Part shown: one piece after another, positions 1,233 to 32,260 of the stretch
Numbering within the stretch: the first letter of the stretch is position 1
Layout: each line of letters starts with the position of its first letter
Virus record (IMG/VR): IMGVR_UViG_3300045988_031779
Location: 1-37,395 of that record
Length of the DNA: 37,395 nt
Source of the DNA: a virus
Lineage: Duplodnaviria; Heunggongvirae; Uroviricota; Caudoviricetes
Strand: one strand, 5' to 3'
Notes under the pieces: model-generated
What the model was told of the DNA's origin: nothing
The model's input: only the letters and a program-made list of their open reading frames with translations
The model's database searches: none
Position numbers and translations under genes: made by a program

Positions 1233-1957
1233 CGTTTCGCTTTGTGCTCGTCCCAGCACGTTTTGCACCATGCCATTAAGCCGTCCGCATTTTGATTATT
1301 AGGGTAAAAGCTGGTCCGTTTTCTGCGGACATTACAAATTGGGCACCACTTCATATGGCGTGTATTCTTTGGGCCATCGAGGCACCTTGCACACCACTTA
1401 GTCAATCCATCTGGATTTTTTGACGATTTCCGGAATTTGTCATATGGAAGGTTTATTCTGCATCGCAAACACTGCTTGCGGCCACTTGAAACTCTGTTAG
1501 CTGATTCTTCTTTTGGCGGCGATACAGAAGGTATTCTTGCTGGCTCTGATACTGCCTGAGGTGCTTTTTTAGATGACTGAGACGATATGTCATCACCAGG
1601 GAATCTTCCATGATATGCCGGACGCGTTGACACTCCAGGTGGAAGCTCAGCTGTAAACGGCTTTGGCTGAATCAGTTGCCTCTCTTTTGCTAACTCCTGC
1701 TGTTTATAATATGTCTGGATTACCGCACTATCATAAGCAGGAGGTACGGAAATATCAGGCGCGTTACCTCCAGTTTTTTGAAACTGAGTAGATGTGTGTT
1801 CTATCACCTGTGTACGACTAATCGTTACCTCCCCATCTTCGGTCTTTATCGTTTTGTTCTGATTAACGACCGTACGATCAGAGATCTTAGTCTTGTTCTG
1901 GTTGATAACGTAAATAATCACCGCAACCACACCAACAACTATCCAGAAAACTTCCAT
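1229..1957 (-). CDS. Single-pass membrane protein with C-terminal tandem Cys-rich (zinc-ribbon-like) repeats, 242 aa
   Basis: ATG at 1957 with GAGGA upstream; hydrophobic N-terminal helix FWIVVGVVAVIIYVI; C-terminus has two similar units NPDGLTKWCARC and NADGLMAWCKTC plus further Cys pairs. No family recognised. Confidence 0.55.
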   Translation of the reverse strand: MEVFWIVVGVVAVIIYVINQNKTKISDRTVVNQNKTIKTEDGEVTISRTQVIEHTSTQFQKTGGNAPDISVPPAYDSAVIQTYYKQQELAKERQLIQPKPFTAELPPGVSTRPAYHGRFPGDDISSQSSKKAPQAVSEPARIPSVSPPKEESANRVSSGRKQCLRCRINLPYDKFRKSSKNPDGLTKWCARCLDGPKNTRHMKWCPICNVRRKRTSFYPNNQNADGLMAWCKTCWDEHKAKR

Positions 1958-1976
1958 TGCTTTTCCTCACAATAAC

Positions 1977-1993
1977 ATTACCTTAAAGGTAAT
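1977..1993. promoter_or_regulatory. Operator-like palindrome site 2: ATTACC-ttaaa-GGTAAT
   Basis: Perfect palindrome 20-36 nt upstream of the start codon of 1229..1957(-). Confidence 0.5.
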
Positions 1994-2069
1994 ATCTTGC
2001 TTTCAGGTGATCAAGCGTTAAACGCAATCAACCAAATACGGTTGATTTTAATATTTCTTCGCGTTTATC

Positions 2070-2086
2070 ATTACCTTTGCGGTAAA
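2070..2086. promoter_or_regulatory. Operator-like palindrome site 3: ATTACC-tttgc-GGTAAA, with candidate promoter just upstream
   Basis: One mismatch to the palindrome; TTGATT (2040..2045) and TTATCA (2065..2070) form a plausible -35/-10 immediately upstream, reading rightward. Confidence 0.4.
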
Positions 2087-2198
2087 TTTACATCGCACTC
2101 CTCTTGTGCCATAGTAATCGGGCACTGGCAAAATCCAGTGCCGGGATTGGCGTCCCGGGTTACTAAGTGGCGCATACCACGCCAGACGTGGTTTTTTT
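2087..2198 (+). ncRNA. Candidate structured leader or small RNA upstream of the Bro-N antirepressor, ending in an intrinsic terminator
   Basis: Stem-loops at 2121..2142 (GGCACTGG-caaaat-CCAGTGCC) and 2141..2158 (CCGGGA-ttggcg-TCCCGG), then terminator 2177..2198. No convincing ORF; track ORF 1997..2308 lacks a ribosome-binding site and crosses the terminator. Confidence 0.3.
2177..2198 (+). terminator. Intrinsic terminator (CCACG-ccaga-CGTGG followed by 7 T)
   Basis: 5-bp GC-rich stem followed by TTTTTTT on the plus strand, about 155 bp upstream of the Bro-N antirepressor start. Confidence 0.5.
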
Positions 2199-2354
2199 AT
2201 GCGTTAAGCACAGCTATATCCGAATTATGGTGGGCTGGGCAGGGGTCCGAAAGGACGCCGGTACCACTTAGGCCGGTACGCCAACCTTGTCCAGTTCACC
2301 ACCAGTAATTGGCGTTGCGGTGGTGATTAAAATCACTAAGTGGAGATAACCACC

Positions 2355-3065
2355 ATGGCTAATGCTCAAACTTCCATCTTCAAATTTGAATCTGTTAACC
2401 CTATCCGTTCCATCATTATCGATGGCCAACCATGGTTTGTAGCCCAAGACGTTTGTAGTGCGCTGCGTATCCAAAACGTCACCCAAGCACTTGAAAAACT
2501 GGATGATGATGAAAGGTCTATGTTCAACATAGGGCATGAACATCGTGCAATTTTTGACAGCCGAGTAAAAGAGATCAACATCATCTCCGAGTCAGGCCTC
2601 TACACACTGATCCTCCGCTGCCGCGACGCAGTGACACCAGGCACTATCCCCTACCGCTTTCGTAAATGGGTTACAGGTGAGGTTCTTCCTCAGATCCGCC
2701 GCACCGGAAGCTACATTAAAAACTCGCTCCCGCAGGAAGAACGCATAAAGATGGTTGCCGACCAGGTAGCCAACGCCACAGCATCAGCAGTGATGCAGGC
2801 AATGAAGATAGAGAACAAAACCTACAGCGCCCCACTGAAGCCCGGCTACCGCAGCCTGATTCATTCGCCGTCTGGTGTTCTCGGCCTGACGGAGCACTCA
2901 CTGCTGATGAATCTGCTGAACCAGTTACAGGACGACGGGCACGACGTATCGGGCGCGGCGGCGGAGCTGACCACCATGTTCTGCTACATCGTCGGTGTGA
3001 GCAAATGCCTGCGTGATATCCAGACCCACGCGGAGTACATCAACGACAAAGCAGGGTTCTTCTGA
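2355..3065 (+). CDS. Bro-N domain antirepressor with Ant/KilA-C-type C-terminal domain, 236 aa
   Basis: ATG at 2355 with GGAG 9 nt upstream (track ORF begins at GTG 2340 in the same frame). N-terminus IFKFESVNPIRSIIIDGQPWFVAQDVCSALRIQN matches the Bro-N signature; C-terminal domain is paralogous to 949..1206. Confidence 0.7.
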   Translation: MANAQTSIFKFESVNPIRSIIIDGQPWFVAQDVCSALRIQNVTQALEKLDDDERSMFNIGHEHRAIFDSRVKEINIISESGLYTLILRCRDAVTPGTIPYRFRKWVTGEVLPQIRRTGSYIKNSLPQEERIKMVADQVANATASAVMQAMKIENKTYSAPLKPGYRSLIHSPSGVLGLTEHSLLMNLLNQLQDDGHDVSGAAAELTTMFCYIVGVSKCLRDIQTHAEYINDKAGFF

Positions 3066-3136
3066 CGGGCGGCGGCACAGGGATGTGTCTTTAAATCATT
3101 CTGTACAGATTGCAGACTGGGAGTGAATAGCGTACT

Positions 3137-3153
3137 ATTACCCTAAAGGTAAA
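3137..3153. promoter_or_regulatory. Operator-like palindrome site 4: ATTACC-ctaaa-GGTAAA
   Basis: 26-42 nt upstream of the ATG at 3179. Confidence 0.45.
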
Positions 3154-3178
3154 CCATGTGTTTACATGAGGAGGAGAT

Positions 3179-3388
3179 ATGGGATTTTGGTTCGCTCGTA
3201 CAAAAACGAGGGATAATGCACCCAGCCCTCAGGCAAAAAATGCAGAAGTTCCGGCGTCAGCGCAGGTTAACAAGCGTGGTGGAGTATATATCTCATCACA
3301 GCAAATTTCTGAGCTTCCTGAGGTTAAAGAGATGCGTCGTCTCGCTGCTGCAATTGTTAAACAGGATCTTGCCACTGTAAGGAAATAG
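3179..3388 (+). CDS. Hypothetical small protein, 69 aa
   Basis: ATG at 3179 with strong GAGGAGGA upstream; ordinary GC content; stop overlaps the GTG start of the next gene (TAGTG). Confidence 0.45.
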   Translation: MGFWFARTKTRDNAPSPQAKNAEVPASAQVNKRGGVYISSQQISELPEVKEMRRLAAAIVKQDLATVRK

Positions 3389-27651: not shown

Positions 27652-28062
27652 TCAATATGCAAAATAGACCGTTGCCACGCCGTTATAGTGATCAAACGAT
27701 ACGGCGTTTACTTCATAACTGGCCGGGAGCTTCGAGCCAAGAACGTATCCGGGCCACGTTTTCCATGGAATTTCTCTATTCTCACTACCCCCATATACCG
27801 TACATCCAAGTGAACCTACAGCTTCATTAGAACGCGTGCCGCACGTTATGAATCCCAGATTTTGCTTACTGCTCTTAATGGTGATTGAGTGAACGCTGGC
27901 TGATGCATTAGCAGCACGCTGTGCCTGTTGGTTTGCGATATTCGCAGAGTTCGCAGCAGCTACAGCAGCCGTAGTCGCGGCGGTAGAGGCTACAATAGCT
28001 GCTGAAGCATGCACTTGTTGGATATTCACCAACAATGCCGCGATAAAAATCATCTTCTTCAC
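27652..28062 (-). CDS. Secreted protein with signal peptide and Ala/Thr/Asn-rich low-complexity region, 136 aa
   Basis: N-terminus MKKMIFIAALLVNIQQVHA is Sec-signal-like; C-terminal domain with two Cys; no family recognised. Confidence 0.5.
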   Translation of the reverse strand: MKKMIFIAALLVNIQQVHASAAIVASTAATTAAVAAANSANIANQQAQRAANASASVHSITIKSSKQNLGFITCGTRSNEAVGSLGCTVYGGSENREIPWKTWPGYVLGSKLPASYEVNAVSFDHYNGVATVYFAY

Positions 28063-28775
28063 TTGTCAGCTCCTTTGCGAATCTGTTCCGCCCATTCTTC
28101 AAGGGATTTCTCCGCATATTCACCAGACAGGCCATCAATCGGATGCGCTTCATTAGCCAACTCTTCTTTCGCTGACAAAATCATGCGTGTAACGTCGAAA
28201 ACTTCACGCAAAGACTTATTGATAAATCCGTGATTGAACGCAGCAGCAAGACGGCTGGCGGTATAGTTAACTCCCTCGTTGCGTGCTTCCGCACGAATTT
28301 CAGCCATGAAAGCGTCGGTGGCTGGGGTTTCGATATTAGGCAGAAGCGCATAATCGCAAATCGTATCGATCGCAGGATCACAACAGTCATCCTCGTTGCG
28401 TGGTCGTTCGCCAACCTTCGTTGACGATTGCATGATGATTCCCCAGCAAATACTATCGACCTCTTCGCTCCATCCATCGCAAGCATCACCGCGATAGTCG
28501 TCGATTGCAGCCTCAGCCGATTCGATAGCTTCCTCAGCAGTTTTGTGCCATTCGAAATTATGCTCAGAGCCATATGAGAAATATGAATGTCCCGCCTTCA
28601 GCCCCGCATTCTCCGCCGCCAGCGCATTAGCACGCACCAGTTGCACTTCCAGTTGCGTTGCCAAATCGCTGATCAGCTTTGCCACACTGCGCATATCAAC
28701 GGCACCACATTCTGCTTTCAGTTCCGAAGCCATCTCATGCCCGGCGGAAACTAACCCTTTGATATTACTTTCCAT
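28059..28775 (-). CDS. Ead/Ea22-like protein, 238 aa
   Basis: Coiled-coil ALAAENAGLKA motif shared with 26840..27643; acidic and Trp-rich C-terminal region. Confidence 0.55.
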   Translation of the reverse strand: MESNIKGLVSAGHEMASELKAECGAVDMRSVAKLISDLATQLEVQLVRANALAAENAGLKAGHSYFSYGSEHNFEWHKTAEEAIESAEAAIDDYRGDACDGWSEEVDSICWGIIMQSSTKVGERPRNEDDCCDPAIDTICDYALLPNIETPATDAFMAEIRAEARNEGVNYTASRLAAAFNHGFINKSLREVFDVTRMILSAKEELANEAHPIDGLSGEYAEKSLEEWAEQIRKGADK

Positions 28776-28836
28776 CTTTACCCTCGCTTATCCACATAAC
28801 TTATTGATTACATTGATAACTAAAAAGATCGTCGAT

Positions 28837-29184
28837 TCAGAACTCTTCGATGTTCCAGCCACCACCTGCTTTCTTTGGCTTAACCGTTACCCCGATGATT
28901 CGGAACGGATACTGATCTGCGGCGACTTTGGTTTTCACTCTGGCGTCATCGGTCCAGAATCCCCCTTTCACTTCGTGCAGTTCCACCTCGCCGGTGGCGA
29001 GCATCACAGCAAAATCTGGCGTATAGAACGTGTTGTCAGCTAACCGCAGCTTGATACCCTCAAATCGATACCAGACGATTTCTCCTGCACGTTTACGCAG
29101 CTCAAGGTGCTGGCAATACGCAGATTCTGTTTTGTTCATCTGGCCTGTTTTGAGTCGACCAAGAGCCTGCATCTGTTTTCTCAT
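28837..29184 (-). CDS. DUF1064-like putative PD-(D/E)XK nuclease, 115 aa
   Basis: Motifs YTPDF and ELHEVKG fit a D...E-x-K nuclease core; first gene downstream of the replication genes. Confidence 0.45.
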   Translation of the reverse strand: MRKQMQALGRLKTGQMNKTESAYCQHLELRKRAGEIVWYRFEGIKLRLADNTFYTPDFAVMLATGEVELHEVKGGFWTDDARVKTKVAADQYPFRIIGVTVKPKKAGGGWNIEEF

Positions 29185-29186
29185 GA

Positions 29187-29203
29187 TTTACCCCTTAGGT
29201 AAT
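29187..29203. promoter_or_regulatory. Operator-like palindrome site 7: TTTACC-cctta-GGTAAT
   Basis: 4-20 nt upstream of the start codon at 29184. Confidence 0.45.
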
Positions 29204-29248
29204 TAAAAACCACATAAGACACGAAATCAATAGATTTTAGAATATTTT

Positions 29249-29265
29249 ATTACCCCTAAGGTAAT
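29249..29265. promoter_or_regulatory. Operator-like palindrome site 8: ATTACC-cctaa-GGTAAT
   Basis: Perfect palindrome about 45 bp from site 7, in the gap between the P-like gene and the DUF1064-like gene. Confidence 0.5.
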
Positions 29266-29302
29266 TATCGAGACGTAAAAAAAATGCGCTATCGCGCTGG
29301 TA

Positions 29303-30103
29303 TTACTTGATAAATCCTGACGCCTTTCCCCGCCTGTATTCCTCCATCAGCCACTGCGCCGGTGTTATTCCCCCAAGGGTGGCGGCGTTAGGCATGCACC
29401 CGAAACTTCGCCCTGGTGGATGGTAAACGTCTCTCCCTGTGTCCGGAGGCGTACTCATGGGTTCTGGCTTTGCCTGTATGCTGATCACCGGATCGGGTAT
29501 CTGCTGTCCGGAAGCCACCTTTTTCGCCCAATCATCGAGCAGCCTGCGCGCGTGTTTCTCAACCTCAATCTCGCTAAGCTGGCGCTGATACATTGCACGG
29601 CGGGTATCACATACGACCCAGTACATAACCGGATGTCGCCACGGGAATCTTTCGGGACCACCAGGATATAAACTTTTTTCCTTGCTGTACCGGTGAAACT
29701 CCGCCATCACATCGTCAATGGTGACGCCAAGAACCATCTTGCTGTCTTTACACCACTTGATGAATTGCCCTGGCGACGGCCAGAACGGAGACTCACTGGC
29801 GCGGGCGTGGCGCATACCAGCAGAAACCTGTTCACGGGTTCGGATCCCACCTTCGGCAAACGCAGCAATCCACTGCTGTTTTGCAGCAACTTCCTGCTCT
29901 GGCGTCTTCAGGTTGGTTACCACTGCCGCCGGAAACAGTTGTTTCAGCTGTTTGAAAAGGGCATCAACAAGCCTCTCTGCTGACATGTTCACCACGTTGT
30001 CATTGTTGGTGTACTGATGCTCATAACCTGACATGCGAGAAAGGGCTTCTCCGTCACGGTTTTGTATCGCGGTAAAAACGTTGTTCACAAGAAATCCTCC
30101 CAT
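29303..30103 (-). CDS. Replication protein P-like helicase loader, 266 aa
   Basis: Segment KQQWIAAFAEGGIRTREQVSAGMRHARASESPFWPSPGQFIKWC aligns by eye with lambda P (RRQWVLAFRENGITTMEQVNAGMRVARRQNRPFLPSPGQFVAWC); directly follows the O-like gene. The start overlaps the O-like gene by 19 nt and may be downstream. Confidence 0.7.
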   Translation of the reverse strand: MGGFLVNNVFTAIQNRDGEALSRMSGYEHQYTNNDNVVNMSAERLVDALFKQLKQLFPAAVVTNLKTPEQEVAAKQQWIAAFAEGGIRTREQVSAGMRHARASESPFWPSPGQFIKWCKDSKMVLGVTIDDVMAEFHRYSKEKSLYPGGPERFPWRHPVMYWVVCDTRRAMYQRQLSEIEVEKHARRLLDDWAKKVASGQQIPDPVISIQAKPEPMSTPPDTGRDVYHPPGRSFGCMPNAATLGGITPAQWLMEEYRRGKASGFIK

Positions 30104-30924
30104 GCTTCAGGGCTGTTCCAGTGCGGAACGTTGTTATCAGGTAATGTTGATTGCTTCTGTCTGCTAATCTGCAGCCGCCTTGCCAGCTTCTGCTCCCACT
30201 GTGCCTGATGGTATGCCTTACCCTCAGCCATCCAGTAAATTCTGAACTCTGCAAGTTCCTGTGCCGTTGGCAGACTGTCCAGGTAGATCCCCTGCAATGA
30301 GCTTTTCCGAAGAAAGTCATCTGATGGCTGCCATTGTTCATGCATGACAAATTTGCCTAATTGCCCTGGCCCACCAGGAGGAACAAAGTTATTCATCACG
30401 GCGTTGTTTGCGCCGGGGTCATGATGCACAGAATCCCCGTTTTTTGTCCTGCTCTCCCTCTCTTGGTTAAATGACTGGTTATATGACTGGTTCTGGATCC
30501 CGTTTTTGGGATCATTCAACATCCCGTTTTTGGGATCATTCAACATCCCGTTTTTGGGATCATTCAACATCCCGTTTTTGGGTATATTCCCGTTTTCGGT
30601 AACATTACCGTTTTCGGGTTCATTGCCCCCCTCTCGGTTGCCTTTAATGTTCCCGTTTTTGGTTATATTAAGAGAGAAAACCCGCACTCTTTTTGTCGCT
30701 CCCTTTCTCTCCCCGGTATCTGAAATAAGCCCCATTTTCATGAGCGATATAAGTCCGGCCTGCACGGTTTTTTTATTCAGGCAAGTGTCTTTAACGAGGC
30801 GTTCTATGCTGGGGTAGCAGAGGTTATATTCATCGGCTCTGTCAGCCATCGAGAGCAGTATGAGCTTTAATGACGAGCTACCTGGATCTGTCTCCCAGGC
30901 CCAATCTGTTGCATGTCTGCTCAT
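30085..30924 (-). CDS. Replication initiator (lambda O-like, helix-turn-helix N-terminus) containing origin iterons, 279 aa
   Basis: ATG at 30924 with GGAG 8 nt upstream; N-terminal DNA-binding-like region; internal peptide repeats PKNGMLND encoded by the DNA iterons; position upstream of the P-like gene. Confidence 0.65.
   Translation of the reverse strand: MSRHATDWAWETDPGSSSLKLILLSMADRADEYNLCYPSIERLVKDTCLNKKTVQAGLISLMKMGLISDTGERKGATKRVRVFSLNITKNGNIKGNREGGNEPENGNVTENGNIPKNGMLNDPKNGMLNDPKNGMLNDPKNGIQNQSYNQSFNQERESRTKNGDSVHHDPGANNAVMNNFVPPGGPGQLGKFVMHEQWQPSDDFLRKSSLQGIYLDSLPTAQELAEFRIYWMAEGKAYHQAQWEQKLARRLQISRQKQSTLPDNNVPHWNSPEAWEDFL
30496..30664. repeat. Origin-like iteron array: core CCGTTTT(T/C)GG, four copies at 24-bp period plus three degenerate copies
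   Basis: Direct read: ATCCCGTTTTTGGGATCATTCAAC repeated with 24-bp periodicity from about 30498, then copies at about 30591, 30609 and 30653; A/T-rich segment follows. Confidence 0.7.
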
Positions 30925-31140: not shown

Positions 31141-31219
31141 GGTAAGCCCTGTTATTAGTATTGGGATTACGGTCATTTTGTGCTGACACAAAAAAAAGAT
31201 CAACCAGATTTGGTTTTTT

Positions 31220-31236
31220 ATTACCTTTGAGGTACG
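31220..31236. promoter_or_regulatory. Operator-like palindrome site 9: ATTACC-tttga-GGTACG
   Basis: One mismatched half-site; in the gap between the cro-like gene end and the zinc-ribbon gene. Confidence 0.35.
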
Positions 31237-31290
31237 AATAGATATGAAAAGACCGCCGGATGGCGGTCTACAGAGGGTTGTGGCTGGATA

Positions 31291-31521
31291 TCATGAGTAG
31301 AAGAAGTATGCCAATTCTGCTTTTGAGCGCAGCCATTGTCTTGTTTTACAGGCTTTAAAAAGCCCATTCATCAATACCTTACCTGGCATTTTGCGCTTAC
31401 CTGTTAAGTGAGTCTGGATATAGTGACTCGTCGTTCCGGCTTCCTGTGCGAAGGCTTCACGCTCATCCGGAGTAAGTGCAAGCCAGTGCTTTTTGAAATC
31501 GAAATGTCCGTTATCGCTCAT
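31291..31521 (-). CDS. Cro/CII-like small helix-turn-helix regulator, 76 aa
   Basis: Divergent from the repressor gene across the operator cluster; HTH-like segment EREAFAQEAGTTSHYIQTHLTGKR. Confidence 0.5.
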   Translation of the reverse strand: MSDNGHFDFKKHWLALTPDEREAFAQEAGTTSHYIQTHLTGKRKMPGKVLMNGLFKACKTRQWLRSKAELAYFFYS

Positions 31522-31556
31522 AGCTATTGCCTGATATTTATTTCAGATAATAAATA

Positions 31557-31621
31557 TTCACCCATAAGGTAACAAAAATCAAGGATAGTTACCTATGAGG
31601 TGCATTTACCTGTTGGGTAAT
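31557..31621. promoter_or_regulatory. Cluster of three operator-like sites in the repressor/cro divergent region
   Basis: TTCACC-cataa-GGTAAC (31557..31573), GTTACC-tatga-GGTGCA (31588..31604, weakest), TTTACC-tgttg-GGTAAT (31605..31621). Confidence 0.55.
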
Positions 31622-31675: not shown

Positions 31676-32260
31676 ATGAAAAGTATCCAGGACGTCCGCA
31701 GGCAAAATCTCAACGACTTGATCGACCGTGAATTCAATGGTGTTCAGACGCGGATGGCAGAAAAACTTGGAACTCAGGCAAATCTGGTAAACCGCTGGGC
31801 TCTTGGCAAGAAGGTTATCGGCGACCAGGTTGCACGAAAAATTGAAGCTGCCGCCAATAAACCCCGTAACTGGCTTGATATCGATCGCTCGCTTTCTCAG
31901 GAAGGTTTTCAGCCTGTCGGCCCAAGCGACATTGGTCAGCTGGCGGCTCACAACCTGGAACGCTGGATGAGCGAAAGCCGCGACCTTTCAACGCAGGGAA
32001 AACTTCACCGCGCATCCGGCGTCGCCCAGGTGACAATCAGTCGCCTGTTAAACAATGAGGTCAGCGTTTCCATTTCCACCCTGGAGAATGTTGCATCCGC
32101 ATTCGGGCGTCACGGCTATGAATTACTGATTCACCCGCACGACCCTGCGACCATCAACTATGACCGCTCGCGCTACGCATTGTTACCCGAAACCGAGAAA
32201 GCAAAGATCGAAAGTTACATTGAATTTGTCATCAACCAGAACGAAAAAAACAAACAATAA
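31676..32260 (+). CDS. Prophage repressor, tandem helix-turn-helix type, no recognisable LexA-like peptidase domain, 194 aa
   Basis: Two HTH-like segments (VQTRMAEKLGTQANLVNRW and ASGVAQVTISRLLNNE); no Ala-Gly cleavage site or Ser/Lys dyad region seen; divergent from the cro-like gene; followed by a strong terminator. Confidence 0.6.
   Translation: MKSIQDVRRQNLNDLIDREFNGVQTRMAEKLGTQANLVNRWALGKKVIGDQVARKIEAAANKPRNWLDIDRSLSQEGFQPVGPSDIGQLAAHNLERWMSESRDLSTQGKLHRASGVAQVTISRLLNNEVSVSISTLENVASAFGRHGYELLIHPHDPATINYDRSRYALLPETEKAKIESYIEFVINQNEKNKQ

Follow-up and report, generated by a model that had tools for sequence, protein, structure and literature searches.

In bacteriophage lambda the replication origin lies inside the gene of its own initiator. 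The four iterons occupy nucleotides (nt) 349-433 of gene O, between the regions for the DNA-binding and the C-terminal domains, and are followed by an AT-rich tract and by gene P. Iteron number varies naturally within the linker of O, and Stx (Shiga toxin) phages carry six lambda-type iterons instead of four, the two extra ones adding 13 residues to the protein (PMC7466680). Here we compare these systems with a repeat array at 30497-30665 in a stretch of viral DNA of 37,395 nt (IMG/VR record IMGVR_UViG_3300045988_031779; "the window" below), located in a minus-strand open reading frame (ORF) of 279 amino acids (aa) at 30085..30924. Most probably the array supplies the iterons for vegetative (theta-type) replication of a temperate phage of the phiV10 kind and forms part of its origin, inside the gene of the initiator that would read it. 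We describe its anatomy, its statistical significance, its copy-number polymorphism and conservation among close relatives, its recurrence across the initiator family and its co-variation with the initiator. Most likely it would be an unannotated origin of the textbook kind, in the arrangement expected from lambda.

Tandem Repeats Finder identified a repeat at 30497-30582 (period 24, 3.6 copies, 100% matches), whose fourth unit differs in its last bases (GGGTATATTC in place of GGGATCATTC), a further array with a period of 18 at 30570-30624 (3.1 copies, 78%) and, at 30464-30492, a repeat of 12 bp. The core CCGTTTTYGG was found seven times in the window, always on the plus strand and always within 30500-30662, against a mean of 0.17 and a maximum of 2 in shuffled sequence. 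Four of the cores are 24 bp apart and the others lie at 30590, 30608 and 30653, in agreement with the initial annotation, which had described four 24-bp repeats and three further copies of this core within the gene. In gene orientation the centre-to-centre spacings are 45, 18, 18, 24, 24 and 24, and the cores occupy gene nt 263-425, between an HTH_36 domain (aa 18-67) and a DnaT-type domain (aa 192-260). The 24-bp unit also holds a perfect dyad that the initial annotation does not mention, ATCCC-GTTTTT-GGGAT on the plus strand. Three copies are the perfect 16-mer ATCCCGTTTTTGGGAT, with 5-bp arms that are exact inverted repeats, and the other four match it at 12-14 of 16 positions; the ATCCC/GGGAT arms are complementary at 5/5 positions in the former and at 2-4/5 in the latter. 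In translation the array reads ...ITKNGN...PENGNVTENGNIPKNGMLNDPKNGMLNDPKNGMLNDPKNGIQ..., and the predicted peptide repeat PKNGMLND is indeed there, three times exactly and once as a variant. Three "terminator-like" plus-strand hits at 30507-30574 (TGGGATCATTCAACATCCCG followed by TTTTT) were rejected as terminators, as they arise trivially from neighbouring dyad iterons on the antisense strand.

The likeness to lambda extends to the form of the sites. In both phages the iteron is a dyad around an A-tract in the same coding-strand orientation (TCCCTC-AAAAC-GAGGGA, ATCCCTCAAAACGAGGGA, in lambda; ATCCC-AAAAAC-GGGAT, ATCCCAAAAACGGGAT, in the window), and the copies follow each other at about two helical turns (20, 24 and 23 bp; 18, 18, 24, 24 and 24 bp, respectively). 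In both, a purine-rich, strand-asymmetric tract lies directly after the iterons, the next gene belongs to the P family and transcription of the early operon would pass through the site. The P-like gene expected after the initiator was confirmed by its match to the phrog_109 "P-like helicase loader" profile (E 3.7e-92) as well as by Pfam (Table 1). By contrast, the window has seven sites in two spacing classes whereas lambda has four; all of its sites stand in one reading frame and so give a peptide repeat, whereas those of lambda fall in three; and three 12-mers and a G+A-rich tract replace the 80%-AT block. The two initiators differ as well, the window protein having HTH_36 instead of Phage_rep_O as its N-terminal domain and a DnaT-type instead of a lambda-O-type C-terminal domain. 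The proposal that the locus mirrors lambda ori inside gene O therefore holds for the position of the array within the gene and for the adjacent P-family gene, but not for the A/T-rich tract.

The replication region (29303-30924) is 98% identical to that of Escherichia phage phiV10 and 96-98% identical to those of several other E. coli phages, and the initiator itself is 98% identical to phiV10 p43. By sequence, the window thus belongs with the phiV10-like phages of E. coli, in the genus Uetakevirus (the epsilon15-like group). The RefSeq record of phiV10 names the gene pair "replication initiation protein" and "putative replication protein p" and annotates no origin or repeat feature; nor was an origin feature found in the annotation tables examined for initiator homologues.

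Among close relatives the number of sites is variable. In 80 viral contigs retrieved by a profile search that returned phiV10-type loci only, alleles carried from four to nine cores, always in frame, and encoded proteins of 263-311 aa. The commonest allele (271 aa, six cores) accounted for 45 of the contigs and the allele of the window (279 aa, seven cores) for two. The 24-bp-spaced cores number two in BP9, three in phiV10 and phiv142-3, four in the window and eight in one E. coli protein of 311 aa, and the 18-bp units vary likewise. The protein apparently tolerates the addition or removal of entire units of 24 bp or 18 bp (eight or six residues) because the linker that holds the sites, with a domain on either side, is unstructured. 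The Stx-converting phages 933W and P27 show the same kind of variation in the O linker, as do the window relatives with their eight residues per 24-bp unit. However, 933W and P27 have a true lambda O and lambda iterons, whose binding and replication have been tested experimentally.

Drift in copy number among near-identical alleles is also what a slippage-prone, low-complexity linker (PKNGMLND)n would show. According to this explanation, selection, if any, would act on the protein, and the repetition of the DNA would merely follow from it and play no part in cis; the spacings of the window phage, all multiples of 3 and hence also a peptide repeat, fit it. Because every spacing is of this kind, the window alone cannot tell selection on the DNA from selection on the peptide. 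Three observations from outside it speak against the peptide, as does the dyad symmetry, which is characteristic of DNA sites but not of peptides. In 44 distinct colinear alleles, 1 of 60 core sites was variable against 72 of 756 elsewhere (Fisher p = 0.034), and the third codon positions of the cores never varied (0/18) against about 18% elsewhere (46/254; p = 0.05). Moreover, in 36 of 50 homologous arrays the copies differ in codon phase, as do the iterons of lambda (phases 1, 0, 0 and 2), so that the same core appears in two or three frames without a peptide repeat. Finally, the sequence of the repeat co-varies with the DNA-binding domain of the initiator. We therefore consider a mere peptide linker very unlikely; the repeats of the family appear to be DNA elements that happen to be translated, because most of the arrays change codon phase.

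A tblastn search with the 87 N-terminal residues gave 124 phage records. In eight of eight diverse phage homologues inspected (from Edwardsiella, Vibrio, Acinetobacter, E. coli PPompW, Burkholderia, an Stx2a phage, Aeromonas and Pseudomonas) an array lies at gene nt ~230-480. A scan of one genome per species added 65 loci with 36-87% N-domain identity. Each locus of ~3.2 kb was searched blindly for its densest cluster of 10-mers with one mismatch allowed, a procedure that replaced an exact-8-mer scan which had missed the degenerate arrays of AP22 and PPompW. Of 61 loci from other species, 50 had their densest cluster at gene nt ~260-520 (binomial p = 2e-20), so the repeats, whose absence from homologous initiator genes the initial annotation had named as an objection, are a regular companion of these genes. 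Typical spacings are 17 and 22, with proximal copies 17-18 bp apart and distal ones 22-24 bp apart; the window, with 18, 18, 24, 24 and 24, is the all-in-frame version of this layout. Since members of the family typically have such a proximal sub-array at 17-18 bp, the three extra cores, though real, are not aptly called "degenerate": they form a conserved sub-array of tighter spacing and a regular part of the design, not decayed copies.

The initial annotation had also suggested comparing repeat and initiator specificity across relatives, and here a trend was observed. Homologues with at least ~45% N-domain identity retain a CCC/CCG - A-rich - GGG/CGG core, whereas those at about 24-29% carry unrelated repeats, such as GGGCAGGAGCTGCCC in Stx2a_F403 and CCCCGCAG... 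in Aeromonas and Pseudomonas phages. Matches to the 12-nt core of the window reach 4.69 per kb in the arrays and 0.045 per kb in the flanks (100x), and their number rises with N-domain identity (Spearman rho 0.53, p = 2e-6, an optimistic value as the loci are phylogenetically non-independent). In the Arsenophonus nasoniae locus four extra window-type core matches were seen outside the initiator gene, possibly as another array; every other locus has at most one.

Concerning the initiator, its whole length (aa 1-277) matches phrog_1032, "replication initiation protein" (E 3.9e-113), and its N-terminal part matches HTH_36 (E 1.9e-10). A search for Phage_rep_O (PF04492) gave no match up to E 10, HTH_36 being the only one, whereas lambda O itself scored 5.7e-36; BLASTP against lambda O found no match either, and the sole link between the two proteins is that both match the "O-like" profiles phrog_678 and phrog_345. 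The designation "O-like" is thus justified by architecture, a winged helix-turn-helix (wHTH) domain, a linker and a C-terminal domain, but not by membership of the Phage_rep_O family. A single-sequence AlphaFold2 model had a mean predicted local distance difference test (pLDDT) score of 38 and was not used.

Homologues are named "primosomal protein", "DnaT" or "DnaT-like ssDNA-binding domain-containing protein" by GenBank/PGAP, ssDNA standing for single-stranded DNA, and the C-terminal domain does match E. coli DnaT strongly: residues 188-273 align with DnaT residues 85-170 (E 7e-21; PDB 9zbt, 4ou6 and 2ru8). From these names one could argue that the gene encodes a DnaT-type primosomal factor for replication restart at recombination intermediates or forks, to which the repeats would be irrelevant. 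Yet the alignments with the PDB entries cover DnaT residues 85-170 only, that is, the ssDNA-binding three-helix domain that the two proteins have in common. In place of the N-terminal part of DnaT, which is suggested to matter for the binding of PriB and for trimerisation (PMC5778457), the initiator has the sequence-specific wHTH domain and the iteron-encoded linker, and its partner is of the lambda-P type instead of dnaC. Furthermore, all 45 diverse homologues scanned contain HTH_36 with the same repeat cassette and only three of them a DnaT domain. A restart function is accordingly hardly credible, and the database names are misleading, because only the ~85 C-terminal residues resemble DnaT and its N-terminal part is absent.

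A close counterpart of the origin cassette is in Edwardsiella phage GF-2, whose "O" protein shares 57% N-domain identity and is accompanied by CCC-A-rich-GGG iterons at 17-24 bp, the same 12-mer and an adjacent P gene. Further HTH_36 proteins of the "replication initiation O-like" kind (PHROGs 1032, 391 and 6643) likewise have the same N-domain, iteron type, 12-mer and neighbouring P gene. In GF-2 (1801-3326 of the locus) a window-type N-domain, CCCAAAATTGGG iterons and 12-mers lead into an ori palindrome resembling that of lambda, GAGAATTCTGACGAATCCTC, and then into a C-domain of the lambda-O type and P; the C-domain matches phrog_277/2357 and is not DnaT-like, and the junction of the chimera falls within the origin. 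As GF-2 is a natural hybrid joined at that point, window-type and lambda-type systems seem to exchange modules at the origin.

Directly beside the iterons we located three tandem GAACCAGTCAT-like 12-mers with the consensus GAAYCwnnCAnn. The pattern used to search for them, [GT]AAYC-N6-8 three times in tandem, occurs once in the window (30465-30493) and recurs at the corresponding position in 53 of 71 related loci, with one other hit on both strands of all loci and 0.25 in shuffles. The units stand in different codon phases in 49 of the 53 loci, and the same DNA is translated as QNQS... in the window phage and as QNQSLEPVIEP in Vibrio phage Her. Pseudomonas phage phi2 has the strict pattern in spite of its unrelated iterons, and looser forms are found in the Stx2a and Aeromonas phages. 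Many loci have an A-rich run after the 12-mers, for example TCTAAAAATAAAAAA. Since HTH_36 is found in all 45 initiators and the DnaT domain in three, the 12-mers would belong to the N-domain/origin cassette and not to the C-terminal adaptor; and since they are kept across differing iterons, adaptors and codon phases, they may be read as DNA or ssDNA by a shared factor, for which a conserved surface of HTH_36 and a host replication factor are candidates.

The unwinding elements of the oriC type contain 13-mers with the sequence GATCTnTTnTTTT. At oriC and in oriV of plasmid RK2 such tandem repeats of 12-13 nt adjoin the array bound by the initiator, at the position of the DNA unwinding element (PMC5043065), and the three of the window are similarly placed; however, they are unrelated in sequence, only 60-62% AT and inside a coding region. 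Concerning the purine-rich part that follows, the AT-rich tract of lambda, whose strand asymmetry has been noted (PMC5043065), is the purine-richest part of O and has the same relative position as the polypurine tract of the window. The 12-mers and this tract could together be the counterpart of the lambda unwinding element, an inference only. Within the tract, the site 30434-30449 reads AAAAAGCGG in the commonest, 271-aa allele and is variable at several positions among the 44 alleles. Somewhat speculatively, the triple 12/13-mer may be an undescribed cis element common to a large class of proteobacterial prophage origins, a sequence-specific site for unwinding or helicase loading in place of the AT-rich tract of lambda. 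The literature search, which did not reach the original genome papers of phiV10 and epsilon15, found no description of the 12-mers; the family-wide cassette, and especially this element, may be new.

The A/T-rich segment proposed to follow the repeats was recovered only weakly. The AT-richest 40 nt of the initiator gene reach 70% AT (about the 95th-97th percentile of the window), but lie at gene nt 243 (about 30643-30682 on the plus strand), overlapping iteron 1 on the N-terminal side of the array; the side that corresponds to lambda reaches 60%. No DnaA boxes were found near the array in a scan of the window. The only perfect one, TTATCCACA, is at 28788-28796 (plus strand), in the gap between genes 28059..28775 and 28837..29184 and 1.7 kb from the iterons; with about 0.3 perfect boxes expected by chance in 37 kb, by our own estimate, it may mean nothing.

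This composition bears on another possible role of the sites. The initiator might bind them for autoregulation by roadblock, for copy-number control or handcuffing, or for titration, the true origin being elsewhere, for instance in the AT-rich intergenic DNA at about 29185-29300, downstream of the P-like gene, or at about 31190-31250. The GC content is indeed 0.27-0.30 at 29180-29270 and 31190-31250, as against 57-60% AT in the region of the array, and plasmid iterons are documented in control as well as in initiation (PMC5043065). However, AT-rich intergenic stretches that hold terminators and promoters are commonplace, the position of the array within the gene is fixed across very diverse neighbourhoods whose flanks are not conserved, and a conserved module of 12-mers and purine-rich sequence abuts the arrays, as expected of an origin core. 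As the same arrangement is a proven origin in lambda, we regard a purely regulatory array as unlikely and retain that of an iteron-type origin within the initiator gene.

By analogy with lambda O and P, binding, unwinding and helicase loading could proceed at this origin as follows. Dimers of the N-terminal winged-helix domain would bind the dyad sites ATCCC-N6-GGGAT and their weaker variants, and the seven sites, each with an A5 tract, would build a bent nucleoprotein complex like the O-some of lambda. The complex would destabilise the adjacent 12-mers (30465-30493) and polypurine tract (30433-30468), which lie at the position of the AT-rich unwinding element of lambda. The DnaT-type C-terminal domain could then capture ssDNA, dock the P-like loader, or both, and the loader would deliver host DnaB, while the early operon would be transcribed through the site. 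Some circumstantial evidence that the element can exist as an episome comes from pHL15EC-2 (NZ_CP079771.1), a circular E. coli "plasmid" of 41,027 bp which is a complete phiV10-like genome and whose only replication genes are this pair. A second circular "plasmid" record of 41,027 bp, NZ_CP079768.1, has an identical initiator N-terminal domain; both may be episomal or induced phage assembled as a plasmid. An 8.6-kb Klebsiella "plasmid" was rejected as evidence of autonomous replication, the record being linear and looking like a prophage fragment.

Several points weigh against reading the array as an origin. A literature search found no experimental evidence of binding or origin activity and no description of an origin for the phiV10/epsilon15 group, although it did not reach the genome papers of these two phages. 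Direct homology between the N-domain and lambda O could not be demonstrated (hhalign E 0.028, probability 1.8%). There is no lambda-like AT block: downstream of the array AT peaks at 60% (79th percentile of the locus), whereas lambda has 80% over 40 nt. The near invariance of the cores, synonymous sites included, is in the expected direction and of marginal significance, and the in-frame spacings of the window phage have been mentioned above. Finally, the comparative samples are phylogenetically non-independent, many of the loci being Acinetobacter prophages.

Table 1. Features of the replication region, in window coordinates
Feature	Position	Strand	Remarks
Replication initiator gene	30085..30924	-	279 aa ORF: wHTH (HTH_36), repeat-encoded linker, DnaT-type C-terminal domain
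N-terminal winged-helix DNA-binding domain, coding region	30664..30924	-	aa 1-87; presumed reader of the iterons
Iteron 1, isolated	30650..30665	-	TAACCAAAAACGGGAA on gene strand; core 30653-30662; 12/16 against perfect iteron; 45 bp to next copy
Proximal sub-array, iterons 2 and 3	30587..30620	-	AACCCGAAAACGGTAA, TTACCGAAAACGGGAA; spacing from iteron 2 to iteron 4 18, 18 bp
Distal sub-array, iterons 4-7	30497..30584	-	24-bp spacing; part with variable copy number
Variant iteron TACCCAAAAACGGGAT	30569-30584	-	within distal sub-array
Three perfect-dyad iterons ATCCCAAAAACGGGAT	30497-30512, 30521-30536, 30545-30560	-	within distal sub-array
Triple 12-mer GAACCAGTCATA TAACCAGTCATT TAACC	30465..30493	-	directly after last iteron; candidate unwinding or ssDNA-capture element
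Polypurine tract	30433..30468	-	83% purine on gene strand; 99.97th percentile of purine asymmetry in window
Doubtful half-iteron GGACAAAAAACGGGGA	30434-30449	-	inside polypurine tract; 10/16 against perfect iteron
DnaT-type C-terminal three-helix domain, coding region	30145..30351	-	aa 192-260; Pfam PF17948, E 1.2e-15
Lambda-P-family helicase loader gene	29303..30103	-	Pfam Phage_lambda_P PF06992, E 1.5e-56; overlaps end of initiator gene
Promoter-like site, early leftward operon reading through origin	31547..31575	-	consensus scan, 9/12 matches; weak

Upstream of the initiator, one small gene and a cro-like gene (31291..31521) lie on the same strand and diverge from a repressor-like gene (31676..32260, plus strand), so the early operon would be transcribed through the array as in lambda. 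The promoter-like site of Table 1 is between the repressor-like and cro-like genes; such sites were not above chance in number in the consensus scan. Judged by the annotation of phiV10 p44, the true start of the P-like gene is probably near 30088. Just downstream of that gene, a DUF1064 gene (28837-29184, minus strand) matches phrog_190, Holliday junction resolvase (E 1.5e-43), and may be part of the same replication/recombination module.

The initiator gene was found in 424 of 5,426 complete E. coli genomes (about 8%), and some database records that contain it are peculiar. In those of O157 typing phages 9 and 10 (KP869107.1 and KP869108.1) the match ends inside the iteron array and the "dnaT" coding sequence (CDS) is cut down to 474 nt; that of typing phage 10 stops at the array and has the N-terminal part of the initiator at its opposite end. 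The repeats probably broke these assemblies or set their ends. In phage YDC107_2 (CP025713.1, 1283-2100) numerous frameshifts and stop codons interrupt the gene, whose annotation consists of several small CDSs, likely through sequencing error or decay of the prophage. A phiV10-type replication module is also found near the end of the 138-kb record of phage BP9 (PP488543.1, 134937-136510), classed as a large virulent Vequintavirus, and in the 115-kb record of phage PH444 (PP350014.1), which suggests assembly chimeras or contamination by induced prophages.

The array gives a probable location to the origin of phiV10/epsilon15-type phages, which are used in the typing and detection of O157. It would also correct a misleading database name, since by its sequence the "primosomal" or "DnaT-like" gene most likely encodes an origin-binding initiator of the O type. 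In practice, the cassette can serve to annotate prophage origins and the iteron copy number as a strain marker, with the reservation that the array probably breaks short-read assemblies. The design known from lambda would extend to the much larger family of HTH_36 initiators, in which the wHTH domain, the two-tier iteron array and the triple 12-mer travel as one cassette fused to interchangeable C-terminal adaptors, and the 12-mer is a candidate for how origins without an AT-rich tract open.

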